64,000 bases of DNA, taken from a virus. The DNA lies in the IMG/VR virus record IMGVR_UViG_3300043607_000045, positions 7,161 to 71,160 of that record, one strand, 5' to 3'. Positions 15,862-58,323 of the stretch are shown piece by piece. The position numbers were made by a program, and so were the translations under genes. Each line of letters starts with the position of its first letter. Position 1 is the first letter of the stretch. Below the pieces are notes generated by a model. The model saw only the letters and a list, made by a program, of their open reading frames with translations, did not search any database and had not been told where the DNA came from.

Positions 15862-15865
15862 GGGG

Positions 15866-16507
15866 CTAGCTCCGTTTCTGGAGACAGAGGGAGGCGAAGG
15901 TGTAGTCGTAGACGTGTGGGCCGTGGTAGGTCCAGTCGGTGCGACCGAGCACGGCGAAGTTATGGCGGATCATCGACACCGCGAGGTCGGTCCAGGTGCG
16001 CTCGGTGAAGATCCGCTTGCGCATCCAGTGGAAGTGAAAGGGATCTGCATTCGAGAGCGGATGGGCGCCGGCCATGTCGCCGTAGTCCATGGTCAGGAAG
16101 AGCAGTCCGCCTGGCGCGACCAGACAGCTCAGATGGTAGAGGAACTGGTCGAGATCGTCGACGTGCTCCAGCACGCTCAGACAGAAGACCGCCGCCCCCA
16201 ACCGCGGGCCGCCCGTCAGAAAGTCGGCGAGCGTATCGCCGTGCAGCTCCTTGGGGTCGATGATCCGCACCTGGTAGGGATCTAGCATGTAGTAGAACGG
16301 GCTGCCGGATCCGCCGACGTCGTAGATCGGCTCCCCGACGCGCGAGGTCTCCGCCCAGAGGTTGTGGGCACGGAGGGCCAGCGCGTACTCCCACCGGCGC
16401 ATCGGGTGCTGCGTAGAGGCGCGCGCGAAGGACTCGTCGACCACCGCTAGCTCGGAGGTGAGCAGGAGGAGGTCGGCCGGGTCGAGCGTCTTGGTCAGGG
16501 GGATCAT
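15866..16507 (-). CDS. Class I SAM-dependent methyltransferase
   Basis: RRWEY, YDVGGSGS, FCLSVLEHV, VAPGGLLFLT. Confidence 0.85.
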   Translation of the reverse strand: MIPLTKTLDPADLLLLTSELAVVDESFARASTQHPMRRWEYALALRAHNLWAETSRVGEPIYDVGGSGSPFYYMLDPYQVRIIDPKELHGDTLADFLTGGPRLGAAVFCLSVLEHVDDLDQFLYHLSCLVAPGGLLFLTMDYGDMAGAHPLSNADPFHFHWMRKRIFTERTWTDLAVSMIRHNFAVLGRTDWTYHGPHVYDYTFASLCLQKRS

Positions 16508-17187
16508 AGCGGCCTCGCGACGTAGTCCCAGATGTCCTCGCGGATCCGGGTCACGTTGTAGCCCTCAGCGCTGAAGAAGCGGAGGTAGTCGTCCCAGTCG
16601 TCGCCCTGCCAGCTGCTCGCCGCCTCCTCGAACTCGAAGAGGATCAGTGGGCGATCCCGGCGGATGGTCTGGCGCAGGCCCCGCAGGGCGCGCAGATCAC
16701 AGCCTTGCGCGTCGACCTTGATCAGCGAGATGGGGCGAGTCCCCACCACCGAGTCGAGCACCACGCTCTCTAGGGCGGTCGGCTCGAAGCACCGGACATA
16801 GGCGAGCGAGGCGACATTCGGGCAGCTGTCCAAGTTCCCCGCTGGCCAGCCGAGCAGCGCATCCGGGGCCACCGTGAACCAGGCCGGCGCCCGGTCGTAG
16901 GCCACCCCCCAGATCACCTCGACGTCGCTGCCCTGCATGTTGGCCTGCAGCACGCCGGCGGTCACCGGGTGCGCCTCGACCGCGATCACCCCCACGTACT
17001 TGGACCGGAGGTAGCGGCTCAGGAAGCCGATGTTCGCGCCGACGTCGATCGCCCAGCCGGTGGGATCCCCCTCGTCCAGGAAGGGCTTGAGCTGGGCGTC
17101 CCAGAAGGCGCCCGACTCCAGCACCTGCCCGAGGTGGTCGCCCTCCCAGACGAGGAACTCGCCGAGGACGGTGGTGATCTGTCTCAT
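16504..17187 (-). CDS. FkbM-family methyltransferase 1
   Basis: IDVGANIG, AVEAHP, LIKVDAQGCD, RPLILFE. Confidence 0.9.
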   Translation of the reverse strand: MRQITTVLGEFLVWEGDHLGQVLESGAFWDAQLKPFLDEGDPTGWAIDVGANIGFLSRYLRSKYVGVIAVEAHPVTAGVLQANMQGSDVEVIWGVAYDRAPAWFTVAPDALLGWPAGNLDSCPNVASLAYVRCFEPTALESVVLDSVVGTRPISLIKVDAQGCDLRALRGLRQTIRRDRPLILFEFEEAASSWQGDDWDDYLRFFSAEGYNVTRIREDIWDYVARPL

Positions 17188-18143
17188 CGGGCCAGCTTGC
17201 GCCAGAGGGTGGCATAGCGCTGGCCGAGGGCGACCCAGCTGTCCTGCTCGGCCAGGGCGACCGTCGCCGGATGCACCCGCCCCAGGTGCAGCAGCGCGAG
17301 CTGGTTGGCGACCTCGTAGAAGCTCTCACACCAGTAGATGGCGCTGTATCCGAGGGGATCCTCGTGGAGCGCGCGCATCTGCCGGCAGCTGGAGAAGGCG
17401 ATGACCGGCTTGCGCGCCGCGATCCCCTGCAGGATGGCGCCGCTCTGCCCGGTGTTCGCACAGGTGTAACAGAAGGCGGTGGCGTCGCACCCACCGAGCC
17501 AGGCGACCACCTGCGATCGTGGCGTGAAGGCGCGCTCGACCAGCAGGCGAGGATTGATCGCCTCCCACCGCATGATGTCGCCGGCGGTCGCCCCGGGCGC
17601 GAGCAGGAGCAGCGCCCAGCCGGCCTCTCGCGTCACCCGGGCTAGCTCGTCGTAGTTCTTCCAGGGGAAGGGGAAGCCGACCGTCCCGAGGATCGGCCGG
17701 CCGTTGCTCCACGCTTGGGGATCCTGGTCGAACTCGAAGGCGCCGGTCCACGCGGGGATACCCATCCGCCAGTAGTGCACCCGCAGCCCGTCGAGGTCGT
17801 CGAACGGCTCGTGCACCACCGCCGCGTCGGCCTGATTGGTGATCCGCTTGCACTGATCCGAGTTAGGGACCCCCGTATCGTGGTAGGTCACCCCGACGGG
17901 GATGTCCACGTCTTGCCAGGCGGCGATCGCCTCGGGCGTCCACTGCGAGTGCAGCGCCGCCTGGTAGTTGAGCCAAATGAGATCGACCGGGCGGGCTAAG
18001 CGGTGCACGCCCTGGGGGTGGAGATCCATCACCACCTCGATCGCGATGGAGGGATCCGCCTGCTCGACCGCCGCCTTGAGATAGGCGGAGTGCTCGGCGA
18101 TGCCGCAGGCGGTCCCCCAGGTGCTCACGAGCGCGACTCTCAC
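17184..18143 (-). CDS. Glycosyltransferase, GT-B (GT4-like)
   Basis: GTGA-coupled start VRVALVSTWGTACGIAEHS; GF..WKN; QSGAILQGIAARKPVI. Confidence 0.82.
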   Translation of the reverse strand: MRVALVSTWGTACGIAEHSAYLKAAVEQADPSIAIEVVMDLHPQGVHRLARPVDLIWLNYQAALHSQWTPEAIAAWQDVDIPVGVTYHDTGVPNSDQCKRITNQADAAVVHEPFDDLDGLRVHYWRMGIPAWTGAFEFDQDPQAWSNGRPILGTVGFPFPWKNYDELARVTREAGWALLLLAPGATAGDIMRWEAINPRLLVERAFTPRSQVVAWLGGCDATAFCYTCANTGQSGAILQGIAARKPVIAFSSCRQMRALHEDPLGYSAIYWCESFYEVANQLALLHLGRVHPATVALAEQDSWVALGQRYATLWRKLAR

Positions 18144-18532
18144 GCCGGCACCACCGCCACGACGCGCGAGGGCTTGAACAGGCGGCGGGCGGCTCGACGC
18201 GCCCCCTGCCGGCTGGCGTAGCTGACGCTCCAATCGTTCTTGGCCGCGTCGATCGGCTGGAACCGCACCCGCCCGGTCGTGGTCCGGCCGTAGCGGATCT
18301 TCTGGACCGCCTTCACGAGGCGCTTCGCCCCGCCCGGCCGGCGGTCGAGCGCCTTCTTCACCGCCCGGGTGATCCGCGCGACCTTCGCCTTCGCCCGCCG
18401 CTGGGTCCGACTCGGCGGCCGCCGACGCTTGTGCTGCCGGGCCGGCGGTCGGGATCCCCGCTGCTGTGCCGAGGTCCGCAGCCCGCGGCCGCTCAGCGCC
18501 TTCTTCTTCTTCGCCTTGACCTTCTTCGCCAT
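18140..18532 (-). CDS. Very basic Lys/Arg-rich histone/protamine-like protein
   Basis: MAKKVKAKKKKALS...; only two acidic residues in 130 aa; coupled on both sides. Confidence 0.7.
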   Translation of the reverse strand: MAKKVKAKKKKALSGRGLRTSAQQRGSRPPARQHKRRRPPSRTQRRAKAKVARITRAVKKALDRRPGGAKRLVKAVQKIRYGRTTTGRVRFQPIDAAKNDWSVSYASRQGARRAARRLFKPSRVVAVVPA

Positions 18533-18918
18533 CAGCCCTTCTCCTTGGAGTCGCCGTCGCCGGCGTCCTTGTTGATCTGCTGCACGAGCCCCGCCCGCCG
18601 ATCGTTGAGTGCCTGCAGCCGGAAGGCGAGGATCCGGATCGCCTCCAGGTCGGGCATTGTATACACATGATCCGGGGATCTCCAAGCCCGGAGATCATCC
18701 TCGGCGTGCCAGATCAGGGCGTTGATCGCTCCCAGCTCCAGGATCGCGTCGAACCAGGCGCCGTTAAGGGTCCGGCTGTGGATCTTCTGGAGGAGGGCGG
18801 CACGCTCGGCCTCGAAGTGGGCGACGTCGGATCCGCGCTCGGATCCCACGGTGATCTTCAGCGCCAGGATGGTCAGCCGGTCGGAGATCTCGCCGGCGCC
18901 GAGGTTGACGAGCTTCAC
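18532..18918 (-). CDS. DUF6165-like helical protein
   Basis: GEISDRLTILALK...INALIWHAEDDLR...LNDRRA..IN pattern, recalled for this family, which often lies near glycosyltransferases. Confidence 0.7.
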   Translation of the reverse strand: MKLVNLGAGEISDRLTILALKITVGSERGSDVAHFEAERAALLQKIHSRTLNGAWFDAILELGAINALIWHAEDDLRAWRSPDHVYTMPDLEAIRILAFRLQALNDRRAGLVQQINKDAGDGDSKEKG

Positions 18919-19649
18919 CGTCGCCCCACGTAGGGGGTCGGTGCCGGTAGGGCGAGGTAGTTATTCGGTTGCGACGGCCAGGGCCAGATGGTGTAGCCCA
19001 GTTCTTTCAGGAACTGGTGCAGCTCGTCGAGCGAGGGATAATGATGGCGGGCGAGATCCGCCTCCCACTCGAAGACGATCGCCGGCTGATGCTTGCGCAG
19101 CGTGTTCTGGAGCCCGAGCAGCGCCGCGCCGTCGCAGCCCTGGGCGTCGACCTTGATCAGACTAACCTGATCCCCGTAGAGGTAGCCATAGTGATCGAGG
19201 GGCTCGCCGGGGAGGGGCTGATCCGGCTGGAAGCCGCTGGGCGGCCGCTCCAACGCTGTCGCCCCCATGTTGTGGAGATCATACGTCGGGGCGTAGAGCT
19301 GTGCCGTCGTATGGTAGGCGGCGACCTCCAGGGGGATCACCACGTCGGCGCAGGTCCGCTGGTTCAGGTCGAGATTCGCCTTCAGCCGCTGCATCGTCTG
19401 GGGCACGGGCTCGACCGCGATCACCCGCCAGGCGCCCTGGCTCGCGCAGTAGATGGAGAAGGATCCAATGTTGGCGCCGACGTCGATGATCGTGGTCCCG
19501 TGGGTACTGAAGCGGGCGAACTCCTTCGCGATCACCTGCAGGAAGCCGGGGCCATCCCAGAGCGTGCCGGCCTTGAGCGTGGTCCCGACACAGTCGTGCG
19601 GGTCGACCAGGAACTTGCCGAAGCGGGTCTCGACGACTTCATCGGGCAC
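18915..19649 (-). CDS. FkbM-family methyltransferase 2
   Basis: IDVGANIG, AVEPVP, NMGAT, LIKVDAQGCD, QPAIVFE. Confidence 0.9.
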   Translation of the reverse strand: MPDEVVETRFGKFLVDPHDCVGTTLKAGTLWDGPGFLQVIAKEFARFSTHGTTIIDVGANIGSFSIYCASQGAWRVIAVEPVPQTMQRLKANLDLNQRTCADVVIPLEVAAYHTTAQLYAPTYDLHNMGATALERPPSGFQPDQPLPGEPLDHYGYLYGDQVSLIKVDAQGCDGAALLGLQNTLRKHQPAIVFEWEADLARHHYPSLDELHQFLKELGYTIWPWPSQPNNYLALPAPTPYVGRR

Positions 19650-20442
19650 AGATCACCTCTTTGAGGGTCGCCGCCGTATGCCGCGCGTCGAAGGTCGGCT
19701 GCCCGTCCAGCCCGAGGACCATCGTCACCTGGGGCCCGTGCATCCCGACCGGGTAGAAGATCGGATTGTGCCGCGCCTCCATCGGCTCCATGATCACCAC
19801 CGGAGTCCCTATAGCGACCGCGAGCACATGCAGCGAGGAGCAGTCGGCGAGCATCAGGGTGGCGTCGGCGATCGCCTCGGCCGCCTGCAGCCAGGAGGAT
19901 CCCGCGAAGCCGGCCTCGGTCACCCAGCGCGATCCATGCGGGGTGAGGATGTGCCCCTTGGGGATCCCGGGGATCTCGACCTGGTTGAGGCAGCAGACGA
20001 GCCCGTATTTCAGCTCAAACCACGCCTCGGTGAAGCCGACGACCAGCGGATCCCCGGTGCCCGGCGCGCTCGGGACGGTGATCCAAGGCGTCTTCAGGTC
20101 TAGGGGCTCGATCACATGCCCGAGCTGCTTGACGGCTTGCAAGTAGGGCTCCTCGGGCAGCACGCGCTCGGGCCAGCGCTGGTACCCCAGATGAAGTACC
20201 TTCTCATAAGGCGAGATCACATCGTCCTCGATCGGGGGCTGCCAGCCCTGGCTCATGCCCCAGCGCGGATCCGCATACACCCGCCCGAGGTAGGGCTGGC
20301 GTTCGAGCAGCTCGACCAGCCCGCTGAACTCGCCGGCGATCCGGAGGTCGACCGGCCCGAAGCCCGAGTCGTGCAGGGCGCGGAGGGTGGGGAGGGCCCA
20401 GAGCAGATCCCCGTGCCGCCCTGGGAAGGTGCAATGGATCAT
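19639..20442 (-). CDS. Glycosyltransferase, GT9 (heptosyltransferase-like)
   Basis: RHGDLLWALPTLRAL at N-terminus; DCSSLHVLAVAIGTPVV at C-terminus. Confidence 0.82.
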   Translation of the reverse strand: MIHCTFPGRHGDLLWALPTLRALHDSGFGPVDLRIAGEFSGLVELLERQPYLGRVYADPRWGMSQGWQPPIEDDVISPYEKVLHLGYQRWPERVLPEEPYLQAVKQLGHVIEPLDLKTPWITVPSAPGTGDPLVVGFTEAWFELKYGLVCCLNQVEIPGIPKGHILTPHGSRWVTEAGFAGSSWLQAAEAIADATLMLADCSSLHVLAVAIGTPVVIMEPMEARHNPIFYPVGMHGPQVTMVLGLDGQPTFDARHTAATLKEVICAR

Positions 20443-26111: not shown

Positions 26112-26324
26112 TCATTTCCCCCCGCGCGCGATCGCGATCACCGTCGACGAGCAGGGGATCGCGACCATCGCGAAGCTGTTCGCGCCCAACCCACCGTAGC
26201 GCGTCGCGAAGCAGAGATCGGTGCGCGCGTCGTAGAGGTACTGGATGTCGTTGACCACCTGCGACGGGGGATCCTGGCAGCCCATGGTCCCCAGACAGCC
26301 GAGGAGGAGCAGCACCCTGCGCAT
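26112..26324 (-). CDS. Small predicted lipoprotein
   Basis: MRRVLLLLGCLGTMGC lipobox-like signal; TGATG coupling. Confidence 0.65.
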   Translation of the reverse strand: MRRVLLLLGCLGTMGCQDPPSQVVNDIQYLYDARTDLCFATRYGGLGANSFAMVAIPCSSTVIAIARGGK

Positions 26325-27478
26325 CACAGCCCTTGTCGGATCCACCCCTGCCACCGCGGCCAGAGGCTCGTCCACTCCAGATGGGCGACCGCCCCGCGGC
26401 AGTAGCCCTGCACCGTCGCCGACCCGACCGCCTCTTCCCACTCCAGCACGCGCTCGATCGCGTTGGCGACGTCCTCGGCCCGGAACAGCGGCCGCTGGAG
26501 CGCATAGGTGCCCTCCAGGCGCAGCTCCCGCACCGGGAAGCGCCACTCGCGCCGGGGGATCAGTTCACGGCCGCCGGCGTAGTCGCCATGCACGACCGGC
26601 ACCCCCGCCGCCAAACTCTCCACGATCGGATACCCAAAGCCCTCGCCCAGGCCCGGCGCGATCGTGACCGCGCACTGCTGATAGAGGGCTTGGAGCTGGG
26701 GATCCGAATAGTTCTCGGTGCTGACGGTGACCCGCTTCGCCAGCCCGCAGTCCATCACCAACTGCTGGACGCTCCACGCCTTGACCAGGATGTCGGTGTG
26801 CAGCCAGCCATACACCGGGATCCCTCGGGCCTGTAGCTCCGCCAGGGTCTGGAAGTAGAGCCCGAGATCCTTCCGGGGCTGGTTGGTCGCGACACAGCCG
26901 ATGAGTAGATCCCGCTGCTTGAAGTGGGGCCCGAGCTGTTGGCGCGCCCACTCGGCCGAATATTCGGATCCCAGCAGTCCCGTCGCGCTGAGCCCGTGAG
27001 GCAGGTAGGGCACAGGGTCTCGCAGGGTGTGGATGATCTCGCTCCCCCAGCGGCCATACGCAATCACCCGATCGGCCAACTGCAGCGCCTGCCCGCCTGG
27101 CCCGCCGATCGTCCCGTTGCGGTTCTGGGCGTCGATCGCCGCATAGCTCCACAGCTGCACCAGCCCGCCGAGGATCCCGTGATAGTAGGCCAGCCGGCTG
27201 GGATCCCAGATCACCCAGATCACCCCGGGCCGGTCGCCAAAGTAGCTGCGGTAGATCTGCTCGACGTAGCTGGCCCCCCAATCCTCGCCGCGGTGCAGCC
27301 GTTCGTCCAGGGGGAAGTGGGGCCACTCCGTCCAGACTGGTGGCACAGGCCCCCCGACGGAGATCAGCTCCACCGGCAGATCGCTCGTGACGATCCGCCG
27401 GCCGAGATCTCGGAGGATCCGCCCAAGTCCCGTCGGCTCGGTCGGCCCGTCGCCCACCAGCAGGAGGGGCGTCTTCAT
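26324..27478 (-). CDS. Glycosyltransferase, GT4
   Basis: PTGLGR, LPHG, NQPRKD, GEGFGYPIVESLAAGVPVV (EX7E). Confidence 0.92.
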   Translation of the reverse strand: MKTPLLLVGDGPTEPTGLGRILRDLGRRIVTSDLPVELISVGGPVPPVWTEWPHFPLDERLHRGEDWGASYVEQIYRSYFGDRPGVIWVIWDPSRLAYYHGILGGLVQLWSYAAIDAQNRNGTIGGPGGQALQLADRVIAYGRWGSEIIHTLRDPVPYLPHGLSATGLLGSEYSAEWARQQLGPHFKQRDLLIGCVATNQPRKDLGLYFQTLAELQARGIPVYGWLHTDILVKAWSVQQLVMDCGLAKRVTVSTENYSDPQLQALYQQCAVTIAPGLGEGFGYPIVESLAAGVPVVHGDYAGGRELIPRREWRFPVRELRLEGTYALQRPLFRAEDVANAIERVLEWEEAVGSATVQGYCRGAVAHLEWTSLWPRWQGWIRQGL

Positions 27479-43921: not shown

Positions 43922-44532
43922 CCCCCATCCAGTACCCGATCACCGGCACCGCCAGCTATGACCCGGACACCCAGGAGGGCCTGGTGAGCTTTCGTCCCGA
44001 CACCACCCCGCCGCCCCCGGATCCCCCACCGCACGACGGGACCGACATGATCGACCTGAGCCAGGTGGTGATCACCCGCGACAGTCCGGATGTGCGGAGC
44101 TGGCCGATCGGGGCGAAGTTCCTCCGGATCGACCTGAGCCCCAGCGCCAACGCGGGGATCGAGTTCAGCAAACGCAATGGGCCCGAGGCGTGGCCCTTCG
44201 TGCGCGGGCCTGAAGGGGGCGAGATCCAGTACACCCTGTGGGTCGTCTGCAAGATTGGCGGGATCTGGTACACCTGCGGGAGCATCCTCTGCATCTCGCG
44301 GGCCCCGAATGACAACTATGTCCCCACCGGCCCGACCCTGGAGATCGGCCAGCTGCCCAATAACTGGTACTACTTCTGTGGGGATCCGCTGCAGGAGTAC
44401 CAGCCCCAACCCGGCGAGCAGGTCGGCTGGTTCCTCACCTCTGGCGTGCAGCGCCGCAACGATATCCACACGGTGGCGGAACGGACCCAGGTCGTGCTGG
44501 CGTCCTTCTCGCCCGGGAGTTACCCCTTCTAA
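43918..44532 (+). CDS. Hypothetical beta-rich, Trp/Tyr-rich protein
   Basis: Pro linker then globular domain; strong codon bias. Confidence 0.75.
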   Translation: MTPIQYPITGTASYDPDTQEGLVSFRPDTTPPPPDPPPHDGTDMIDLSQVVITRDSPDVRSWPIGAKFLRIDLSPSANAGIEFSKRNGPEAWPFVRGPEGGEIQYTLWVVCKIGGIWYTCGSILCISRAPNDNYVPTGPTLEIGQLPNNWYYFCGDPLQEYQPQPGEQVGWFLTSGVQRRNDIHTVAERTQVVLASFSPGSYPF

Positions 44533-45896
44533 TGGCCCGCTATCGACGCCGGCGATCGCCGCTGCTCCTCCTCCTGCTGCTCCTAACCTTGAGTGTCGGG
44601 GTCAAGAGCCAGGACATCTTCAAGGCCCGCACCCTCGCCCAGCAGATCCTCGACGCCCTGGAGCCGACGCCGGTCGTGGTGGTGATCCCCACCCCGGCGG
44701 CCTTCAACGTCGCCTACGCGGCCGCGCCGGCTGGGAGCACCCTCACGCTGAGCCGATCGCTCATCTACACCGACCCGCTGGTCCTCAACAAGGCGATCAC
44801 GCTCCAGCCCGAGGGCGCCCTCCCACTCACCCCGATCGACGCCGCGACGCCGCTCCCCTCCTTCAGAGATGGGATCACCATCAGCGGCGACGCGGTGACC
44901 CTGATCGGGGTCGAGGTCAAGAAAGTCGACCCCCAGACCGACATCGTGGTGGTGAGTGGCGCCGGGGTCACACTCGACCGGATCCGCGTGCTCGGGGATC
45001 CGGTGCGCGGCGCGAAACGCGGGATCCGAGCCAATAGCAACGGCAACCTCCGGATCCTGCGCTACTACATCGACTACACCTTCCAGATCCTCAATAGCGC
45101 GGACTCGCAGGCGATCTGCGGCTGGGACATGGGACCCGGGCTGCTGATCGAGGATGGCTACGCGAGTGGGGGATCCGAGTCGATCATGATCGGCGGGGCT
45201 GATGCCTCCTCGGCAGCCCGGATGCCGGCCGAGGTCACCATCCGCGGGAACCGGATCACCAAGCGGCCCGAGTGGCAGGCGGCCGCGGTCGGGGTCAAAA
45301 ATATCCTGGAGATCAAGGCCGGCCGCAATATCCTCATCGAAAACAACGACATCGAGTACTCCTGGGGCGGCCATGGCCAGGACGGCTACGCCTTCTTGAT
45401 CACCGTGCGCAACCAAGATGGGAGAGCCCCCTGGAGCACCGTGCAGAACGTCGTGTTCCGAGGGAATCGGATCACCCATGCCGCGGCCGCGATCAACATC
45501 CTCGGGCTGGACAACATCCGGGAAGACACCGCCGGCCGGCCGACCCCGGTGGGATCCGTCCGCCCCTCGATCCGCGCCTCGACCATCAGCATCACCGGGA
45601 ACACCGCCACCGACCTCGACCCGACCAAGTGGACCGGATCCAACCGGATGATCCTGATCGGCGGCTCGCCGATCGACGTGACGATCGACATGAACACCTT
45701 CGTCGGGCAGCACCTCGGGAGCGTGGTCTATCTCTATGGCAGCCTACCGACGTCGCAGATCCCCGGACTGATGATCACGAACAATACCTGGCCGCCGTCG
45801 ACGTACGGCGTGAAGGGCGACGGGCTCGCCAGCGGCGCCGCCACCTGGGCCGCCTACGTGCTGAGTGGCCGGCTCGAAGGGAATGTCGTACAGTAG
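44532..45896 (+). CDS. Right-handed beta-helix (pectate-lyase-like) protein with signal peptide
   Basis: MARYRRRRSPLLLLLLLLTLSVG signal; repeated xxIxxN strands (VTIRGN, ILIENN, VVFRGN, ISITGN, LMITNN). Confidence 0.85.
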   Translation: MARYRRRRSPLLLLLLLLTLSVGVKSQDIFKARTLAQQILDALEPTPVVVVIPTPAAFNVAYAAAPAGSTLTLSRSLIYTDPLVLNKAITLQPEGALPLTPIDAATPLPSFRDGITISGDAVTLIGVEVKKVDPQTDIVVVSGAGVTLDRIRVLGDPVRGAKRGIRANSNGNLRILRYYIDYTFQILNSADSQAICGWDMGPGLLIEDGYASGGSESIMIGGADASSAARMPAEVTIRGNRITKRPEWQAAAVGVKNILEIKAGRNILIENNDIEYSWGGHGQDGYAFLITVRNQDGRAPWSTVQNVVFRGNRITHAAAAINILGLDNIREDTAGRPTPVGSVRPSIRASTISITGNTATDLDPTKWTGSNRMILIGGSPIDVTIDMNTFVGQHLGSVVYLYGSLPTSQIPGLMITNNTWPPSTYGVKGDGLASGAATWAAYVLSGRLEGNVVQ

Positions 45897-46000: not shown

Positions 46001-46195
46001 ATGCAGTACATCTGGCGCACCCTGATCGCCGCGGTGGTCTTCGCCGTCTTCGTCCTCCTGGTGATCCCGGCGCTCCTGTCGCTGATCAACATGCCGTCGA
46101 GCAGCGCCCTCGACGCCATCATCAAAGGGTGCTCGATTCTGATCGCCCTAGGCTACATCCTCTGGGGCAAGCCGGTCGTCCCCGGCCCGGCCTAG
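46001..46195 (+). CDS. Small two-TM membrane protein (holin candidate)
   Basis: GGAGG SD; two hydrophobic helices. Confidence 0.7.
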   Translation: MQYIWRTLIAAVVFAVFVLLVIPALLSLINMPSSSALDAIIKGCSILIALGYILWGKPVVPGPA

Positions 46196-49156: not shown

Positions 49157-50467
49157 ATGTGCGACGACGGCTTCGCCATCACCGGCGGTGGGGGCGGGGG
49201 CGGTGGGGTCGGCCCAGCCGGGCCGGCGGGGCCTGCGGGTCCGCCCGGCGCGACCGGATCCCCCGGATCCCCAGGCGCGGGCGGCTTGCCTGGGCTGGAT
49301 GGGATCGATGCTGAGCCCGACTTTCCCATCCCCGGCCTCCCTGGTGTGGCTGGGACCCCTGGTAGCGCAGGCGTCGCCGGCCCTCCTGGTGCTCCAGGTA
49401 GTCCCGGGATCGACGGCGTCGACGGCGATCCGGATTTCCCGATCCCTGGGCCGCCTGGGGCAACCGGGGCTGCGGGCGCTCCAGGTGCGCAGGGGGATCC
49501 GGGGACACCCGGGGCGACCGGACCCACAGGCCCAACGGGCGCGATGGGGCTCGATGGCGCCGATGCGGAGCCGGATTTCCCGATTCCAGGCCCACCCGGC
49601 ACGCCAGGGGTAGCCGGATCCGCAGGCGCGCCAGGCGCCGTGGGTGCGATGGGCGCGCCAGGGCTCGATGGCCTCGACGGCGACCCCGACTTCCCGATCC
49701 CCGGCCCGACGGGTCCTCAAGGCCCCGCCGGATCTGCGGGTGCCACGGGACCCGTCGGGCTCGCCGGCGCGCCAGGTCTGGACGGGATCGATGGGGATCC
49801 TGACTTTCCCATCCCTGGACCGCAAGGCCCCACCGGCGCGCAGGGCTCCATCGGCCCCACTGGCGCGATCGGCTCGACGATCTGGATCCCCGGGATCATC
49901 GACGACTCGGCCGGCGATGCGCTGCTTGACTTCTCGGGGCCGCCCACGGTCTCGCTCCCGCAGCGGATCTACAACGTCTCGGTCGCCTCCCAGGCCCCCG
50001 CGGCCGCCACCCGGACCTATCTGACCGGATCCGCGCTCAAGGTCCCGTCGGGGAAGCTCGCCATCGGGAATATGTTCCTCTGGCGCTTCAACATGACCAA
50101 GACGGGCGCCGGCACCGCGCTGTCGACCTTCGACATCGCCTTCGGCACCGCCGGATCCACCGCCGACACCGCGCGCGTGTCCTTCGTCAAGCCGGCCGGA
50201 ACCGGGGTGATCGACGAGGCGTGGGTCGAGATCATGGCGACGATCCGCGGGCCGATCACCTCGCTCTGTATCGTGAGCGGGCTCTTCCACCTCTCGCACA
50301 ATCTCGCCGCGACGGGGCACGCGATCATCCCGAACGTCGTCGTCAATACCCAGTCGGCCGGCTTCGACGTCACCGGCGCCAACATCATCGCCGGGATCTG
50401 CCTGACCTCTGGCGCGCTCGACGCGATCACGATCCAACTGATGCAAGCCGAAGCGTTCAACCTCTAG
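49157..50467 (+). CDS. Collagen-like virion fibre protein with C-terminal beta domain
   Basis: GXY triplets interrupted five times by G[LI]DGxD[AG][ED]PDFPIPG. Confidence 0.88.
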   Translation: MCDDGFAITGGGGGGGGVGPAGPAGPAGPPGATGSPGSPGAGGLPGLDGIDAEPDFPIPGLPGVAGTPGSAGVAGPPGAPGSPGIDGVDGDPDFPIPGPPGATGAAGAPGAQGDPGTPGATGPTGPTGAMGLDGADAEPDFPIPGPPGTPGVAGSAGAPGAVGAMGAPGLDGLDGDPDFPIPGPTGPQGPAGSAGATGPVGLAGAPGLDGIDGDPDFPIPGPQGPTGAQGSIGPTGAIGSTIWIPGIIDDSAGDALLDFSGPPTVSLPQRIYNVSVASQAPAAATRTYLTGSALKVPSGKLAIGNMFLWRFNMTKTGAGTALSTFDIAFGTAGSTADTARVSFVKPAGTGVIDEAWVEIMATIRGPITSLCIVSGLFHLSHNLAATGHAIIPNVVVNTQSAGFDVTGANIIAGICLTSGALDAITIQLMQAEAFNL

Positions 50468-52062: not shown

Positions 52063-52337
52063 TGCCGACCTCCCTCAAGAGCCAGCTCGATGACGTCGTC
52101 GGCGGGCTCGTGAACGCCGAGCCGGCGACCCAGATCACGCGCGGGATCGCCAAGGTTGGCGAGGCCGCCGAGCCCTATCTGAACAAAGCCAGCGACGCCT
52201 ACGACTCAGCGAAGACCTGGGTGCAGAAGAAGCTCACCCCGACCCCGCCACCGATCACCACCGACATCAATCTCCCGGTCTCGGGCAAGCGGAAGGTCAC
52301 CAAACCCGTCCCCACGCGGTCCCTGAGTAAGCGCTAA
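52062..52337 (+). CDS. Hypothetical protein
   Basis: TGATG and TAATG coupling. Confidence 0.65.
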   Translation: MPTSLKSQLDDVVGGLVNAEPATQITRGIAKVGEAAEPYLNKASDAYDSAKTWVQKKLTPTPPPITTDINLPVSGKRKVTKPVPTRSLSKR

Positions 52338-54520
52338 TGGCCGACTTCAGTCCCTCCGGCGTGCTCGATCTGCCGCAGACCACTGCCGATAGCCTGAGCA
52401 AAGGCGACACCCGTGTGCTCGGCTGGCTCAAAGAGTGGCTGGTGGAGGGGGATCTGATCAACCGATCGGATCCCTCCTACGAGGGGATCGAGAAGGCGTT
52501 TGAGTATGTGGTCGGCGAGCAGCGCTCCCCCGAGACGCGCAAGCTGAAGTACCTCCCCCAGGTCGTCATCAATGAGACGCGGAAAGCGATGCAGGCACAC
52601 GTCAGCGCGATCACCGACTTCGAGCCGGTGGTCGGCTGGAAGGGCCCACCCGAGGCGCAGCTCCAGGCGGATCTGCTCAACAAGTATCTCCTGGCCGAGT
52701 GGATCACCCTGATGCTCGACCTCGACCTAGGCGACTGCGTCAAGTACTCGCTCGCCGGCGGGACCGGGGATCTGATCGTCGACTGGGATCCGCATATCCC
52801 GCTGGGCGGGGGGCATCAGCTCTCCGCACGGGATCCCAGGGATACTCTCCCGCTGCGCCCCAGCTACGGCCGCTCCGTCCAGTCCTGGGAGGGGGTGTGC
52901 TTCCGCGAGGAGCACTCGGTGAACGTCCTCAAGGGGATGTACCCCACACGCGCGCACCTCTTCAAAGCCGCCTCGGATACCTCCCTGGGACGAATCGCCG
53001 GCCGCTTCCGGATGGGCCTCTCGCGCCTCCTCAGCCCGGCCGACCCGCTCGACTCGATCGCTGGTGGGGGATCCGCCGCCTCCGCCCGTCGCCTGCGCCG
53101 CGGCTCGGTCGCCCTCTACCGCGGCTACTTCCACGACCGCACCCGCAACCTCACCACCACCCCGATCCCGATGGGCACCCCGGGCGCGAACTGGGCCTAT
53201 GTCGTCAAGCCGGGCGAGCCCCTCTACCCCCGCGGCCGCCTGCTGGTCGCCACCGACGATGCCGTGATCTATGACGGCCCGAACACCTACTTTCATGGGC
53301 TGTTCCCCTTCTGCCGGCTGAAGCTCTGGTCGGTCCCGTGGCAATTCCTCGGGGTCCCACTCTTTAACGACCTGATGCCGATCCAGGACGCGATCAACGA
53401 CACGGTGGGGGACATCCGGCTAGGGATCCAGCAGTGGATCAACCCCGACGTGACCTACAACCGCAACGCCGTGTCCGAGGCGACCATGAAGATCATGGAT
53501 CCCCGGCGGCCTGGGAAGCGGGTCAAGGTCACCCCGGGGTTTGGGGATCCCTGGAAGAAGGAGAACGGGCCCAATCCGCAGATCCTCTCGATGGCGATCG
53601 AGATGTGGGAGAAGCTCACCACCAAATTCGAGAGCCTGAGCGGGACGGCGAACCTGCAGGCCCTCCTGCAGCTGCGCCAGATGCCCAGCGCCGACACCAT
53701 CGAGAAGTACTACAACGCCCTGACCCCGGAGATCCGCAGCGAGGCACGCACGGTGGAAGCCTTCCTGCGCGACCTCTCCGAGATGATCAAGGTCAACTAC
53801 TTCCAGTTCCTCAGCAAGGCGAAGCGGATCCAGATCCTGGGCTCGGCGGGCGAGTCGATGGTCGACTTCGACTTCGACCCCAACACCCTGGTCCCCGGGC
53901 TGAAGAAGGGGGATCCGAAGTACACCCCCGAGCTGGACGTCGACGATACCACCCGGGATCAGCGCGCGATCTTCATTGCCGGCCAGCTCCAGTTCGTCGT
54001 AGCGCCCAACTCGGTGCTCGCGATCGACGCCACCGAGCAGAAGATGATGCGACTGCAGCTCGCCCGGATGGGCTACTACGACTTCTGGTCGCTGCACGAG
54101 ACACTGCACACCCCGAATGTCGGCGCCCCGCCCGCGGTCCCGCTGCCGCCGATCGAGCCCCCGCCGCCTGGGCTCCTCGAAGCCATGGTCGCCCAGGTCG
54201 TCGCCCCCGGCGGGATGCCGGCGCCGCCAGGAGCCCTGCAGGCCACCATCCAGGGCGTGATCGCCGGCGCGATCCCGCCGCCCAAGTACACCGATCCGGA
54301 GAGCGGCCGCACCTTCACGCTCGACCCGACCTCGGGCTCGGTCCTAGAACTGCGCATCCCGAACACCATCACCGAGCGCCTCCAGGCCCAGCAGCTCCTG
54401 GGCATCGGCCAGACCGAAAACCCAGCCGGGCGGAAGGCGTCCGGGCAGGCGCCTCCGAAGCAGGAGACCAAGAACGACCAGCCCGGTGGGCGGCCCACCA
54501 TCACCGAATCGAAGAAATAG
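52337..54520 (+). CDS. Portal protein (P22/podovirus-like)
   Basis: 727 aa between TerL and scaffold; YPRGR, FPF, DLMPIQDAIN motifs; Pro-rich tail. Confidence 0.85.
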   Translation: MADFSPSGVLDLPQTTADSLSKGDTRVLGWLKEWLVEGDLINRSDPSYEGIEKAFEYVVGEQRSPETRKLKYLPQVVINETRKAMQAHVSAITDFEPVVGWKGPPEAQLQADLLNKYLLAEWITLMLDLDLGDCVKYSLAGGTGDLIVDWDPHIPLGGGHQLSARDPRDTLPLRPSYGRSVQSWEGVCFREEHSVNVLKGMYPTRAHLFKAASDTSLGRIAGRFRMGLSRLLSPADPLDSIAGGGSAASARRLRRGSVALYRGYFHDRTRNLTTTPIPMGTPGANWAYVVKPGEPLYPRGRLLVATDDAVIYDGPNTYFHGLFPFCRLKLWSVPWQFLGVPLFNDLMPIQDAINDTVGDIRLGIQQWINPDVTYNRNAVSEATMKIMDPRRPGKRVKVTPGFGDPWKKENGPNPQILSMAIEMWEKLTTKFESLSGTANLQALLQLRQMPSADTIEKYYNALTPEIRSEARTVEAFLRDLSEMIKVNYFQFLSKAKRIQILGSAGESMVDFDFDPNTLVPGLKKGDPKYTPELDVDDTTRDQRAIFIAGQLQFVVAPNSVLAIDATEQKMMRLQLARMGYYDFWSLHETLHTPNVGAPPAVPLPPIEPPPPGLLEAMVAQVVAPGGMPAPPGALQATIQGVIAGAIPPPKYTDPESGRTFTLDPTSGSVLELRIPNTITERLQAQQLLGIGQTENPAGRKASGQAPPKQETKNDQPGGRPTITESKK

Positions 54521-54593: not shown

Positions 54594-54800
54594 ATGTGCA
54601 TGGGCGCCTCCCCGAGCAAAGGTCCAGACCCCTGGCAGGCCGAGGACGATCATCGGACCCTCACACGCGCCGCGGAAGTCCAGGCGGACCCCGCCCGGAT
54701 GAAGGGCGTCGTCAAACACCATTCCAAAATGAAGAAAGCGCTCAGCAACGTGAATCGCACGATCGGGGCGAGTAAACGGATGGGCGGAGGATCCCGATGA
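54594..54800 (+). CDS. Small basic head-region protein
   Basis: WQAEDDHRTLTRAAEVQADPARM motif seen in podovirus head regions. Confidence 0.72.
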   Translation: MCMGASPSKGPDPWQAEDDHRTLTRAAEVQADPARMKGVVKHHSKMKKALSNVNRTIGASKRMGGGSR

Positions 54801-54985
54801 CCGACAAGCACGGCAAGGCGATCACCCCCGGCTGCACGGTCAAGCTCCCCGATGGGACCAAGGCCCACGTCAGCGGCACGCTCTCCACGCGCGCGACGCT
54901 GGCGAAGGCGAGCGAGGTCGAGGTCATCGATCACCAGGGCGGCGCGAAGGCGGCGGACGGGGACTCGATTATCTGGGGATCCTAA
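54797..54985 (+). CDS. Small SH3/KOW-like protein, paralog A
   Basis: GGAGG SD; aligns along its length with the next ORF. Confidence 0.75.
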   Translation: MTDKHGKAITPGCTVKLPDGTKAHVSGTLSTRATLAKASEVEVIDHQGGAKAADGDSIIWGS

Positions 54986-55176
54986 TGACGGACAGAAATG
55001 GGAAGCCGATCACTGTGGGCTGCCGGGTCAAGAATCCGGACGGCTCGACCGGCCGGATCACCGGTGTCGTGACCACCAAGGCGCGGGTCCACCTAGCGAG
55101 CGAGGTCGAGGTGATCCCCGAGCACACCCATGGCGACAAGGCTGGCGACGGCGATACGATCGTCTGGGGCACCTAG
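54985..55176 (+). CDS. Small SH3/KOW-like protein, paralog B
   Basis: TAATG coupling; shares ASEVEVI and DGD[ST]I[IV]WG[ST] with paralog A. Confidence 0.75.
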   Translation: MTDRNGKPITVGCRVKNPDGSTGRITGVVTTKARVHLASEVEVIPEHTHGDKAGDGDTIVWGT

Positions 55177-56223: not shown

Positions 56224-57132
56224 ATGATGACACGATGGTTGCGGTGGTGGACCCAGTCGCCCGACGGCCTCCTCTGGGGGGCGTTCGAGGACGGGCAAGC
56301 CTTTATCGCTGGCGTGCTGGCGAAGCTCCCCGAGGGGCAACGCGCACAGGCGAAGGCGATCTTCGATGCAGCGGAGGCGAAGGACGCGGTCACCCTGATC
56401 GGGGACGGCGCGCTGGCTCGCTCCGACTACAGCAAGCACATGGATACGATCAAGACGCAGGATCAGGAGCTGAAGGACAAGCTCGCGGCGGCGACACAGC
56501 TCTACGAGAAGAACGATGCCTGGTACAAAGCCAACGCCACTGCGCTCCAGGAGTACCCCACCCTCAAGTCCGAGGTGGAGCGCCTGAAGGCCGGCGGCGG
56601 GGGTGGCGATGACGACGACGACAAGGAGAAGAAGGTGACGCTCGACAAGAAGAGTATCGAGGACACCATCAAGTCCCTGCTCGGCGCCGAGCTGGATCTC
56701 CAGCTCTCCGACCGCGAGCGGGGCTACGTCGACGTCGTGGCGTTCATGCAAGACACCGGGGGATCCCACCTCAAGATGTTTGGGGAGCTGCCCTCGATGC
56801 GCGAGCTGACCGCCAACCCGAAGCTCGGGAAGCCGATCCTCGGCCAGCCCGGGCGGGTGTTCTCGCTCCAGGATGCCTACAACGAGAAGTACGGCACCCA
56901 GGTCCAGGCCAAGGCGAAGGAAGCCCACGACAAAGAGATCGAGGCGGAGGTCCAGAAGCGGCTGGGCGAGGAGCGCTCCAAAAATGGAGGTCAGCCCTTC
57001 CCCCTGCGCGGACAGGCCCCATCCGTCCTCGACGTCCTCGACACCAAAGAGGGCGCGGCCGCCCACACCCTCGACACCGCCGTGGCGGCGTACGAGAGTC
57101 TGCAATCCGGCCGCGGTCTCGGCGCCACATAG
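56224..57132 (+). CDS. Scaffolding protein
   Basis: Charged coiled coil directly before the MCP; DGALARSDYSK motif; GGAG SD. Confidence 0.78.
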   Translation: MMTRWLRWWTQSPDGLLWGAFEDGQAFIAGVLAKLPEGQRAQAKAIFDAAEAKDAVTLIGDGALARSDYSKHMDTIKTQDQELKDKLAAATQLYEKNDAWYKANATALQEYPTLKSEVERLKAGGGGGDDDDDKEKKVTLDKKSIEDTIKSLLGAELDLQLSDRERGYVDVVAFMQDTGGSHLKMFGELPSMRELTANPKLGKPILGQPGRVFSLQDAYNEKYGTQVQAKAKEAHDKEIEAEVQKRLGEERSKNGGQPFPLRGQAPSVLDVLDTKEGAAAHTLDTAVAAYESLQSGRGLGAT

Positions 57133-57144
57133 AAGGAGTCCCCG

Positions 57145-58323
57145 ATGCGTAGCGTACTCACGGGAATCGGAGCAGGCTGTCGCTGGCTCGGGGCCCACCC
57201 CCTAGTGACCGCGCTCCTCTTCCTCGTCGTTGCCCACTTCGTCCACCCAGGGGCACTGACCCTGGTCCCCATCGCGCTGGCGATCCAGCTCGATGACGTG
57301 AACACCGTCACGACCAAGGAGATCATGCCGGGGGTCGTCGACGGCTACTTCAAGGGCGGGCCCTGCATTGCGATGTGCAAAGCGCGGTTCACCCGGAAGT
57401 GGATCGGCCCGCAGATCCAAGAGAACTTCATGTTCAAGCCAATGAAGGGTGGCGCCTACAAGAAGGGCGCGACCTTCAATACGGATCGCCGGCAGACCCG
57501 TACCGGCCTGCTGTTCACCCCGCGCTACTACGAGGTGAACGTCACCGAGTTCCTCGAAGATCTCGAAGTCGAGATGGCCGGCCCGCGCGCGGCCTTCAGC
57601 GTGATCCGCACCGACATGCAGCAGGCGGCCCTGACGATGTCGGCGATCCTGGAGATCGCCTTCTACCGGCATGGCCAGGCGCTCCCGGGTGACGATCGCT
57701 CCGCCGAGATCAACGGGATCGAGGAGGGGTACAACGACGGCATCAACGCCTCCTGGGCTGGGAACGTCTTCCCGAGCTACGGCGGTCAGACCCGCGTCGA
57801 CGTGACCCCCGCGCTCAACCCCCCGGTCGGCCTGATCCAGCCGCTCAACACGACGATGTCGTATCGCGTGCTGCGGCATTCCTACTTCTCCTGCGTCATC
57901 GGCAACGAGGCGCCGGGGGTGGGGATCACCACCAACCGCCTGATGGGGTTCATCGCCGAGAACTTCCTCCCGCACCAGATCATCGACACCACCCAGCCCG
58001 AGATCAACTGGCCTGGCCTGAAGTTCGACAAGGCCACGATCATGATGAGCCAGTACGCCCCGGGGCAGGACGGCGTCAATGATCCCGACCTCGGGAACTA
58101 CCTCGCGACCGGCGAGACGTTCGCGTGGCTGAACTTCGGTCCCCAGGGCGATGACGCCTACATCCGTCTCTACATCGCGCAGTCGAGCAAGTTCGCCTTT
58201 GGCTTCACCGGGTTCAAGGGCGCGCGTGAAGACAACCAGGTCGCCGGCCAGCTGCTCTTTGGCGGCAACCTCACCCTGAAGGCGCTCCGCCTCTCGCGGA
58301 TCCTCCACGGGTTCACGGCGTAG
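57145..58323 (+). CDS. Major capsid protein with N-terminal hydrophobic leader
   Basis: AAGGAG SD; very strong codon bias; INGI...YGGQTR motif; sits between scaffold and decoration genes. Confidence 0.87.
   Translation: MRSVLTGIGAGCRWLGAHPLVTALLFLVVAHFVHPGALTLVPIALAIQLDDVNTVTTKEIMPGVVDGYFKGGPCIAMCKARFTRKWIGPQIQENFMFKPMKGGAYKKGATFNTDRRQTRTGLLFTPRYYEVNVTEFLEDLEVEMAGPRAAFSVIRTDMQQAALTMSAILEIAFYRHGQALPGDDRSAEINGIEEGYNDGINASWAGNVFPSYGGQTRVDVTPALNPPVGLIQPLNTTMSYRVLRHSYFSCVIGNEAPGVGITTNRLMGFIAENFLPHQIIDTTQPEINWPGLKFDKATIMMSQYAPGQDGVNDPDLGNYLATGETFAWLNFGPQGDDAYIRLYIAQSSKFAFGFTGFKGAREDNQVAGQLLFGGNLTLKALRLSRILHGFTA

Follow-up and report, generated by a model that had tools for sequence, protein, structure and literature searches.

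The head module of this soil phage, whose complete genome comprises 71,160 bp with 67% GC, lies on the plus strand of the window, i.e. the stretch of 64,000 nucleotides analysed here (positions 7,161 to 71,160 of the record IMGVR_UViG_3300043607_000045). A 727-aa portal-size gene is followed by small ORFs, the gene for a 302-aa helical protein and the capsid gene:

52337..54520, plus strand: portal-size gene (727 aa), which heads the head module; called "portal" by position and size
56224..57132, plus strand: scaffold-like gene (302 aa), product helical and charged, with only a weak coiled-coil match in Pfam; its stop (TAG, 57130-57132) abuts the capsid Shine-Dalgarno sequence
57133..57138, plus strand: Shine-Dalgarno (SD) sequence AAGGAG, right after the upstream TAG, with a 6-nt spacer to the ATG at 57145
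57145..58323, plus strand: major capsid gene, an ORF of 392 aa
57283..58323 (stop included), plus strand: HK97-fold shell domain (residues 47-392), corresponding to the whole protein of leaderless relatives

The same order is found in Tunturi_1, in which the portal gp3 (729 aa) and the major head protein are annotated. The portal-size protein has no match in Pfam or PHROGs, so it was labelled by position and size; its gene is 51-76% conserved in 10/10 related genomes. The scaffold-like protein also has homologues in 10/10 related genomes, both those with the N-terminal leader described below and those without it. The alignment starts at residue 16-22, so the gene probably begins some 17-22 codons after position 56224. 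Downstream of the capsid gene there is a match to the SU10-adaptor family of Pfam that falls below the family cut-off (24 vs 27 bits).

According to its structural model, the 392-aa protein is an HK97-fold major capsid protein, as the preliminary description of this DNA had proposed. Pfam and PHROGs gave no family for it or for the scaffold-like protein, so the fold was identified by structure: the AF2 model (pLDDT 85.8, pTM 0.78) has 302 matches at E<=0.001 in a Foldseek search of the PDB, and those listed are phage capsids and encapsulins, including Pa223 (1.1e-9) and SU10 (4e-7). HK97-fold coat proteins are textbook soluble cytoplasmic proteins, and the known N-terminal extensions in this group consist of charged domains with a scaffolding or propeptide role, which a phage protease removes. 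In this protein, residues 1-46 read MRSVLTGIGAGCRWLGAHPLVTALLFLVVAHFVHPGALTLVPIALA, and IQLDDVNTVTTKEIMPG follows from I47 (57283-57285). The hydrophobic N-terminal leader, put at about 45 aa in the preliminary description, is therefore real, with 46 residues and the sequence given there. Such a hydrophobic, membrane-like leader, in a phage with no recognisable protease, is unusual for tailed-phage capsids.

Translation of the leader, starting at an SD-backed ATG of its own, is in our view very likely. At 67% GC, an open frame upstream of the junction is by itself no evidence of translation, and in some relatives the frame is open for 100-207 codons upstream of it; what lifts the leader above chance is the position of the SD, the lack of a start at the junction and the conserved leader profile taken together. 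Between the upstream stop and I47 there are only two in-frame starts, the ATG of codon 1 and a GTG (V21, 57205-57207), of which the ATG alone is preceded by an SD, the AAGGAG already reported; codon -2 of the junction is CTG. Across the 17 leader-type loci, an SD-like core is located 4-12 nt before the leader start in every case (17/17), and an SD-backed start at codons -3 to -1 of the junction in none (0/17), which bears out the earlier statement that no such start lies nearby. An ATG, GTG or TTG at these codons is absent from 16 of the 17 loci, and the exception (L071) has no SD there. On the other hand, 56/56 leaderless viral loci have an SD-backed ATG or GTG at codons -1 to -4 and an in-frame stop 3-18 codons upstream of the junction, and their N-terminus at the junction reads M-A-I-Q-L-D-D or similar; the leaderless homologues (348-356 aa) begin with MAIQLDD. 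The part downstream of the leader is thus a normal capsid N-terminus, as claimed. The frame is open in all 16 leader sequences analysed, whose alignment was threaded codon by codon and whose pooled GC content at the three codon positions is 0.73, 0.49 and 0.82. Since the SD moves with the leader start and leaderless relatives start at the junction, the leader has the properties of a segment inserted in frame, with the ancestral Met1 before it and Ala2 after it. A second AAGGAG, encoding K-E, occurs inside the capsid gene (57316-57321), 3 nt ahead of the ATG of M61 (57325-57327). M61 was rejected as a conserved start, as this spacing is too short and many homologues have Q, A, E, V, S or I at this position.

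The earlier observation that no prohead protease is visible holds as far as it can be tested: a six-frame search of the complete 71,160-bp genome gave no match at E<=1 to PF04586, PF03420, PF01343 or PF00574 (the S78, S77, S49 and ClpP families), and no peptidase match was found in Pfam among the 15 proteins scanned. A divergent protease could be missed by such searches, since the portal-size and terminase-size proteins also escape Pfam. Among 11 genomes, 3 of them incomplete, no gene of this phage's genome occurs in every leader-type genome while missing from every leaderless one, and none tracks the leaderless state in the reverse comparison. The leaderless genome G007 has the same gene set as the leader-type genomes over the part that its contig covers, and genome lengths are alike (68.7-72.0 kb for leader-type, 69.7-70.5 kb for leaderless).

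The leader can be divided into a positive amphipathic helix, a hydrophobic helix of 14-15 residues between His-Pro breaks, and a short hydrophobic segment that contains Pro:

57145..57201, plus strand: segment A (residues 1-19), an amphipathic helix with Arg residues that ends in W-L-x-x-H-P (W14, H18, P19)
57202..57252, plus strand: segment B (residues 20-36), hydrophobic helix LVTALLFLVVAHFV, with the second His-Pro break at its end
57253..57282, plus strand: segment C (residues 37-46), ALTLVPIALA, hydrophobic and Pro-containing, with a small-residue junction at its end

In the AF2 model the three segments contain helices at residues 2-17, 19-33 and 38-45, with pLDDT <50 at residues 40-45. 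The conserved pattern is W-L-x-x-H-P-R-L, a hydrophobic stretch, H/R-P-D/E and phi-phi-G-A; in the alignment of 21 leaders, P19 is at least 90% conserved and Pro occupies the second, central break in 15. Leaders are 42-53 aa long, with a hydrophobic c-region of 10-13 residues. Their N-region has a mean net charge of +2.3 (at least +1 in 36/38), and the first 15 shell residues have a mean charge of -1.7. Leu, Ala and Val make up 45% of leader residues, Arg 7.2% and Lys 0.3%.

Hydropathy was assessed on the Kyte-Doolittle scale and by simple sums on the Hessa scale. Residues 20-33 have a mean Kyte-Doolittle value of 2.66, and the KD19 maximum is 1.98 for the whole capsid protein vs at most 1.36 in any shell domain; KD19 is at least 1.6 in 31/46 leaders and below 1.6 in 15/46. 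The simple Hessa sum is positive (+0.5 to +10) in 44/46 leaders, so that spontaneous membrane insertion is not predicted. The description of the leader as transmembrane-like is only partly supported: the core of 14-15 residues, broken by His-Pro and mostly above zero on the Hessa scale, is not a clear-cut membrane span. In some leaders of the Tunturi-like branch, Q-R or K-R interrupts the hydrophobic stretch midway, a feature more in keeping with an amphipathic helix than with a buried one. At the junction, position -2 is G in 38/46 leaders and L in 8/46, and position -1 is A in 28/46 and V, I, L, P, E or D in 15/46. The AxA-like cut site of the preliminary description survives in a looser form: the (-3,-1) small-residue rule is satisfied at one of two adjacent sites in 45/46 leaders, but a strict A-x-A occurs in only 3/46.

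Two other signals were considered and rejected: a lipobox at G-A-G-C (residues 9-12), where the -3 position holds G and the Cys varies, and a twin-arginine signal, as R-R is found in some leaders and is absent from that of the window. A search of the ESM Atlas with residues 1-48 gave no usable match. Complex prediction with four leader copies scored 0.01 (mark 0.42), which speaks neither for nor against self-association.

The leader is found in 46 of the 119 database relatives with a matching junction motif, and in 16/72 viral loci that have an N-terminus. Leaders on divergent capsid genes are homologous to one another: their profile scores 1e-15 to 1e-20 in the capsid frame only, and recovers L014, which the profile had not seen before, at 2.9e-15. 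In the loci analysed and the whole genome the motif occurs at capsid N-termini only, one stop-interrupted chance match aside. A small stand-alone gene was rejected as the origin of the leader, as 0 of 3325 candidate proteins of 23-93 aa match the profile, and its 14 longer matches are all this capsid protein or its fragments. No leader remnants were detected upstream of 49 of the 56 leaderless loci (best E 1.2); the remaining 7, with an unmatched motif or <400 nt of upstream sequence, were left out of this search.

Shell domains up to 88% identical occur with and without the leader, which indicates that it is dispensable for the shell. A tree of 146 rows requires 14 changes of leader state, at least 5 of them forced by well-supported branches; with DNA-verified rows only, 4 changes are required (bootstrap range 3-6), and 0/200 bootstrap trees need just one. 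On these trees the leader has been gained or lost several times; the outgroups and the most distant representatives are leaderless. At the protein level the leader is estimated to evolve about ten times faster than the shell domain (pN 0.41-0.65 vs 0.03-0.14); in the 40 printed pairs dN/dS is 0.26-1.5 vs 0.07-0.25, with leader dS near saturation. The high pN combined with persistent richness in Leu, Ala and Val, together with the occurrence of unrelated-looking hydrophobic leaders at the same site (L071, L018, L112, P0112, P0126 and P0208/P0254), suggests selection on hydrophobic character rather than on sequence. No shell-domain column was found to co-vary with the leader, in a comparison of low power with only 5 supported pairs, which says nothing about mechanism.

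The closest cultured relatives are Tunturi_1 and Tunturi_2 of Tunturiibacter (Acidobacteriota), whose gp8 has 25% identity over 64% of the protein and begins, without a leader, with MANPLFSEI; both phages have the order portal, small genes, scaffold-size gene and capsid. P0208 and P0254 are uncultured Tunturi-like capsid proteins, with a 24-residue hydrophobic leader at the point where gp8 starts. The sole match in the genome collection is a 3.3-kb contig in a Gemmatimonadota MAG. The Tunturi phages are podoviruses; their heads measure about 64-73 nm and their genomes 63 kb (PMC11924767).

We tentatively favour, at somewhat less than even chances, the interpretation of the leader as a facultative pro-sequence. 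It would keep coat subunits that have not yet assembled on the cytoplasmic side of the membrane, probably as a re-entrant anchor, and would probably be clipped between Gly and Ala. Of its parts, some association of the leader with membrane or lipid seems to us slightly short of an even bet, and its removal from the mature virion evenly balanced. The phage would make a pre-protein with a 46-residue hydrophobic leader in front of an otherwise ordinary HK97-fold coat protein. The positive charges at the front, the hydrophobic helix of 14-15 residues, the conserved His-Pro break and the second short arm point to a re-entrant (monotopic) or interfacial membrane anchor, which would hold new coat subunits at the inner membrane, on its cytoplasmic side, and leave the shell domain in the cytoplasm, with scaffold, portal and DNA. 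In known HK97-fold procapsids the N-arm points inward, so the leader would have to quit the membrane when its subunit joins the shell. For the same reason a closed procapsid cannot be tethered by its N-termini, and the earlier suggestion of membrane-tethered procapsids could apply only to free subunits or open shells. The leader would then probably be clipped within phi-phi-G-A-I-Q-L-D-D, between G and A, which would regenerate the N-terminus that leaderless relatives obtain by Met removal. The hints of cleavage are the start of leaderless proteins at the junction, the G at -2, the (-3,-1) rule and the low pLDDT of residues 40-45. A host protease is invoked for this step because no phage protease is detectable; however, we can name no host protease with a cytoplasm-facing site, which counts against clipping. 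The conserved G-A may serve just as a flexible linker, its conservation partly due to shared ancestry, and an uncleaved leader is sterically possible, as by our own estimate the extra mass inside the shell is small.

According to published guidelines, positive residues ahead of a hydrophobic domain and helix breakers inside it bias it towards a re-entrant topology, if the biology fits (PMC6133551), and the leader, with its short hydrophobic domain, shows both features. The leader resembles the re-entrant helix of monotopic phosphoglycosyl transferases (PglC) in its initial positive charges, hydrophobic helix-break-helix layout, X-Pro break and arms of about 10-15 residues, and such a topology would leave the attached domain cytoplasmic (PMC6133551). 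The two nonetheless have no sequence homology, the break is His-Pro rather than Ser-Pro, and the passenger is a capsid protein instead of an enzyme; moreover, the putative anchor would need release or cutting. The pattern of positive charges before and acidic residues after is that of secretory signal peptides and is not specific to a re-entrant anchor. A precedent for head assembly that starts at the inner face of the cytoplasmic membrane is the T4 prohead (portal gp20, gp40, YidC), whose membrane-associated initiation proceeds through the portal (PMC9958956). In T4, however, it is the portal and not the coat that associates with the membrane, via a chaperone, and the T4 coat is not known to have a hydrophobic anchor.

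Among the alternatives, the one that survives best, though we regard it as rather unlikely, dispenses with the membrane: the leader would stay uncleaved as a small counterpart of the HK97 delta domain and point into the procapsid, where its helices would cluster under capsomers and aid capsomer or shell formation beside the scaffold, while its first helix, which carries Arg, may contact scaffold or DNA. The leader is indeed located where the HK97 delta domain and the T4 gp23 and T5 pb8 propeptides are found, N-terminal to the inward-facing N-arm and outside the mature lattice. The failure to find any protease family, a hydrophobic helix too short for a clear membrane span, the use of Arg almost without Lys, the small added mass that we estimate inside the shell and the similar genome lengths with and without the leader agree with this possibility. 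However, relatives build the shell without the N-terminal extension, some with an 88% identical shell domain, and the scaffold gene occurs in both kinds of genome. The known extensions comprise 65-160 residues, are charged or coiled-coil, act as the scaffold or together with it, and are removed by a phage prohead protease; the leader has 46 residues, is membrane-like, rich in Leu, Ala and Val and flanked by aromatic residues and His-Pro, and is accompanied by a separate scaffold-like gene, with no protease of the four families detected. Neither a phage prohead protease nor an N-terminal region serving as scaffold, which characterize the propeptide systems, was found here. The interchange of very different hydrophobic leaders argues against a specific protein-protein fit. 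The lack of a co-varying shell-domain column also counts, at low power, against this alternative.

It is a good deal less probable that the leader is an accessory driven by conflict with the host, which would hide or relocate the coat protein from capsid-sensing defences, or delay assembly, its patchy distribution reflecting an arms race. Repeated gain and loss, fast protein evolution, several unrelated leader types at one site and the lack of a fixed partner gene are all in line with this idea, but the rapid change could as well come from relaxed constraint on a purely physicochemical signal, and leader dS is near saturation. Defence evasion and membrane anchoring do not exclude each other. 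A combined scenario, which we regard as unlikely, is that soil podophages use a plug-in monotopic anchor to stockpile coat protein on the inner membrane face until a host membrane protease releases it between G and A of phi-phi-G-A, with the cassette exchanged in frame after Met1 and before Ala2, perhaps in response to host defences that sense capsids.

We regard as still more improbable a true Sec-type signal peptide cut by the host signal peptidase I, in which case a fraction of the coat protein would be exported, or intermediates would hang in the membrane until cut. The leader resembles Sec signal peptides in its n-h-c layout, with a positive n-region, an h-region of 14-15 residues and a Pro/Gly opening of the c-region, as well as in its small junction residues, which nearly always obey the (-3,-1) rule at one of two adjacent sites, and in an acidic early mature region. 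Unlike them, it is about twice the usual length, has a hydrophobic c-region, rarely shows AxA (3/46) and has V, I, L, P, E or D at -1 in 15/46, and its passenger must work in the cytoplasm. As signal peptidase I cleaves on the outer face of the membrane, the release by this enzyme put forward in the preliminary description would need a periplasmic shell domain of 346 aa, away from scaffold, portal, terminase and DNA; this would be incompatible with cytoplasmic assembly and DNA packaging, and since no internal start exists, every capsid copy bears the leader. Export followed by signal-peptidase release is thus topologically unlikely. Least probable of all, and largely refuted by the comparison of loci, is an annotation artefact, with the leader a 5' region open by chance and translation beginning at the junction or close to it: high GC favours chance-open frames and database gene callers give long and short forms alike, but starts are lacking at the junction, the SD always moves with the leader start, and the peptide motif, hydrophobic pattern and capsid-frame profile persist despite a pN of 0.4-0.65.

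In the open full-text literature, no description of a hydrophobic or signal-like leader on an HK97-type coat protein was found, which is weak evidence of absence. On the practical side, annotation pipelines truncate such genes or flag the capsid proteins as secreted or membrane proteins, which calls for caution. Relatives that differ in the leader but have shell domains up to 88% identical form natural pairs and hence ready-made controls, and the distant kinship to culturable phages of Acidobacteriota offers a possible experimental route. If the anchor interpretation is true, a phage without its own protease would borrow a host enzyme for capsid maturation. More generally, if the leader anchors subunits or is cut by a host enzyme, it would represent a new control of where and when the capsid of a tailed phage assembles.

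The IMG/VR virus record, 71,160 bp long, 100% complete according to CheckV and with a GC content of 67%, of which the window covers bases 7161-71160, encodes a 392-aa protein without matches in Pfam or PHROGs. Its AlphaFold2 model, built from a 40-sequence alignment (pLDDT 85.8, pTM 0.78), gives 302 Foldseek matches to solved structures at E<=0.001, and those listed are phage capsid and encapsulin shells, e.g. Pa223 (1.1e-9) and SU10 (4e-7); judged by this model, the protein is an HK97-fold major capsid protein. Its gene is arranged as follows.

57130-57132, + strand: stop codon TAG of the scaffold-like gene (302 aa, helical, charged), immediately 5' of the capsid gene
57133-57138, + strand: Shine-Dalgarno (SD) sequence AAGGAG, 6-nt spacer to the ATG of the capsid gene
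57145-58323, + strand: capsid gene, ORF of 392 aa
57316-57321, + strand: perfect internal AAGGAG inside the capsid gene, only 3 nt upstream of the ATG of M61 (to 57327)

For the scaffold-like ORF (56224-57132, + strand), the first ATG probably lies too far 5'; homologues in ten related genomes align from residue 16-22 only. The AAGGAG and ATG of the capsid gene were confirmed on the DNA, and our reading of residues 1-46 (the leader) and of the following IQLDDVNTV is identical to that of the preliminary description.

In some relatives the upstream frame is open for 100-207 codons. Chance-open frames are common at such a GC content, so an open frame alone is no proof of translation and a comparative test is needed. 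The 521 relatives found by protein search fall into two lengths, approximately 385-399 aa with the leader and approximately 348-356 aa with a start M-A-I-Q-L-D-D exactly at the junction, as expected if a normal capsid N-terminus follows the leader. Start sites were compared on the DNA of 73 related viral loci and the window. All 16 leader-type loci, as well as the window, carry an SD-like core 4-12 nt 5' of an in-frame ATG or GTG at codons -29 to -53 (counted back from the junction), and none of these 17 shows a start with an SD between codons -3 and -1, in agreement with the earlier claim; codon -2 is CTG, CTC or GGN in 16 of them. In each of the 56 leaderless loci, on the other hand, a stop interrupts the frame 3-18 codons upstream, and an ATG or GTG at codons -1 to -4 is backed by an SD (the N-terminus of the remaining locus, L050, is absent). 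Thus, the ribosome-binding site shifts together with the leader. In the window, the second in-frame candidate, a GTG at V21, lacks an SD, while the internal AAGGAG encodes K58-E59 and M61, not conserved in homologues, is probably not a start; this arrangement could mislead gene callers. The leader also has a coding signature (pooled GC1/2/3 of 0.73/0.49/0.82). The presence of the leader is a solid observation, and the analysis shows that the capsid gene makes a pre-protein whose leader, a hydrophobic module, is facultative, exchangeable and dispensable for the shell.

According to a 21-sequence alignment, leaders share a plan: an Arg-bearing amphipathic helix followed by W-L-x-x-H/N-P (P19 at least 90% conserved), a hydrophobic helix of 13-15 residues, aromatics, then H/R-P-D/E (Pro in 15/21), and a short hydrophobic stretch with a further Pro, ending in phi-phi-G/L-A. 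The 46 database leaders contain 45% Leu+Ala+Val, 7.2% Arg, 0.3% Lys and 3.3% Asp+Glu; the n-region has a mean net charge of +2.3 (at least +1 in 36/38), and the first 15 shell residues average -1.7. The Kyte-Doolittle 19-residue maximum reaches at least 1.6 in 31 of the 46 leaders (median 1.77) and stays at or below 1.36 in every shell domain; the plain sum of a Hessa-type scale is positive in 44/46. By these sequence measures, the segment is membrane-like without being a strong single span.

The plan of the leader is conserved in leader-type relatives, but the leader is missing from the shorter ones. Its rate of change is roughly ten times that of the shell domain (pN 0.41-0.65 vs 0.03-0.14), with dN/dS of roughly 0.3-1.5, where leader dS is near saturation, vs 0.07-0.25; despite this, it retains its motifs and its hydrophobic character. 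With a leader profile, the unseen locus L014 is picked up at 2.9e-15; the leaders of L018 and L071 belong to other types and go undetected. Two more divergent capsid proteins, P0219 and P0232, carry the type-1 leader as well, and different-looking hydrophobic leaders occupy the same site in other loci (L) and database proteins (P).

L071: 27-29 aa
L112: 21 aa, SD-backed GTG
P0112: 24 aa
P0126: 56 aa
P0208 and P0254: 24 aa each, on Tunturi-branch capsid proteins

L071 (genome G010), L112 and P0112 have in common a shorter acidic-then-hydrophobic pattern, x-L-x-I/V-D-...-L-S-L-L/V-L-G, at the capsid N-terminus; L071 has an additional ATG at codon -2, without an SD.

The shell-domain tree of 146 rows, with leaderless outgroups, needs 14 changes of leader state, at least five of them forced by well-supported branches. 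A second tree, limited to rows with DNA-verified state (16 with and 33 without the leader), needs four (bootstrap range 3-6), and a single change is possible in none of 200 bootstrap trees. The SD context is the same in both kinds of genes, and in those with a leader an in-frame block separates the start codon from the Ala codon; the leader therefore acts like a cassette placed between Met1 and Ala2. A profile search found no leader relics upstream of 49 leaderless loci. In leaderless L024-L029, L038 and L070 the spacer from the scaffold stop to the capsid SD is unusually long (60-140 nt, about leader-sized) and has no detectable similarity to the leader profile.

In the related loci examined and the whole genome, the leader motif is confined to capsid N-termini, except for one stop-interrupted chance match in L061. 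The profile found no small stand-alone leader protein among 3325 candidates, and all 14 longer proteins it retrieved belong to this capsid family or its fragments. When the window's genome was compared with ten related genomes, of which five are leader-type, four are leaderless and one has another leader type (three are incomplete), no gene tracked the leader in either direction, and a low-power test found no co-varying shell-domain residues. A block at ~11957-20442 and 26324-27478 (- strand), including a GT4-type glycosyltransferase (Pfam 1.7e-10), is common to leader-type genomes and leaderless G007 and missing from G006, G008 and G009; it is lineage-specific content without link to the leader. 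Other genes were noticed on the + strand.

44532-45896, + strand: 454-aa protein with what looks like a classic signal peptide (MARYRRRRSPLLLLLLLLTLSVGVKSQ); weak beta-helix match in Pfam
46001-46195, + strand: 64-aa ORF, next after the former, the most hydrophobic of the genome (KD19 3.17)
49157-50467, + strand: 436-aa ORF between the terminase-size and portal-size genes, with a long collagen-like Gly-X-Y region interrupted by repeated D-G-x-D-G/A-D/E-P-D-F-P-I-P-G units, then a non-repetitive C-terminal domain
54797-54985 and 54985-55176, + strand: tandem paralogous ORFs of 62 and 63 aa between the portal-size and scaffold-like genes, both beginning MTD-K/R-x-GK-x-IT-x-GC

The first two, without matches in the ten related genomes, may form a depolymerase or lysis cassette; the third is possibly a fibre of the head or tail; the paralogues have no tblastn match in these genomes.

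Among cultured phages, Tunturi_1 and Tunturi_2 of Tunturiibacter (Acidobacteriota) come closest, with 25% identity over 64% of the capsid protein. These podoviruses, with heads of ~64-73 nm (PMC11924767), have the same head-module order, but their capsid protein has no leader and begins MANPLFSEI. Among 185,579 species genomes, a 3.3-kb contig that was binned with a Gemmatimonadota MAG is the sole match.

As for function, we infer that the shell domain must remain cytoplasmic. The leader begins with positive charges, continues with a short hydrophobic helix up to an X-Pro break that is conserved, and ends in another short arm. This layout agrees with indicators published for monotopic, re-entrant anchors, whose entry into and exit from the membrane lie on the same face (PMC6133551), and therefore an anchor on the cytoplasmic face is favoured. 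T4 provides a precedent for membrane-associated head initiation, although its route goes through the portal (PMC9958956). The proposed anchor would concentrate free coat subunits at the membrane surface. Since the N-arm of HK97-type procapsids is directed inward, the anchor would have to release as subunits join the shell. The leaderless proteins that begin exactly at the junction, the conserved small residues there, and the dip in model confidence (pLDDT <50 at residues 40-45, directly before the shell domain) suggest that the leader is clipped near G|A. The leader helices of the model span residues 2-17, 19-33 and 38-45. Position -2 is G in 38/46 leaders and L in 8/46, and position -1 is A in 28/46; the AxA-like cut site claimed earlier is supported in part, since small residues follow the (-3,-1) rule at either of two neighbouring positions in 45/46, but strict A-x-A occurs in only 3/46. 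Six-frame searches of the complete genome gave no match to Peptidase_S78, S77, S49 or ClpP at E<=1, and Pfam revealed no peptidase among 15 scanned proteins, which agrees with the earlier remark that no prohead protease is visible, within the limited Pfam sensitivity for a phage so divergent that its portal-size and terminase-size proteins also escape. Clipping would then need a host enzyme.

As the main rival to the cytoplasmic-face anchor, the leader may stay uncleaved, face inward and work as a miniature delta domain, whose bulk inside the head would be negligible by our estimate. A speculative conflict-driven role, with the coat protein hidden from capsid-sensing defences, is compatible with the patchy, fast-evolving pattern of the leader. 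Release of tethered procapsids by a host peptidase, proposed in the preliminary description, if read as a full N-in/C-out insertion with a signal-peptidase cut, would place the shell domain on the side of the membrane where it cannot serve.

HK97-fold coat proteins with N-terminal pro-regions are already known, but a hydrophobic, signal-like leader was not found in the full-text literature searched (freely accessible papers, judged by titles and abstract openings). Without counterpart within that scope is the combination described here: a hydrophobic leader, a separate scaffold, no recognisable protease, and a recurring on/off module across the capsid family.
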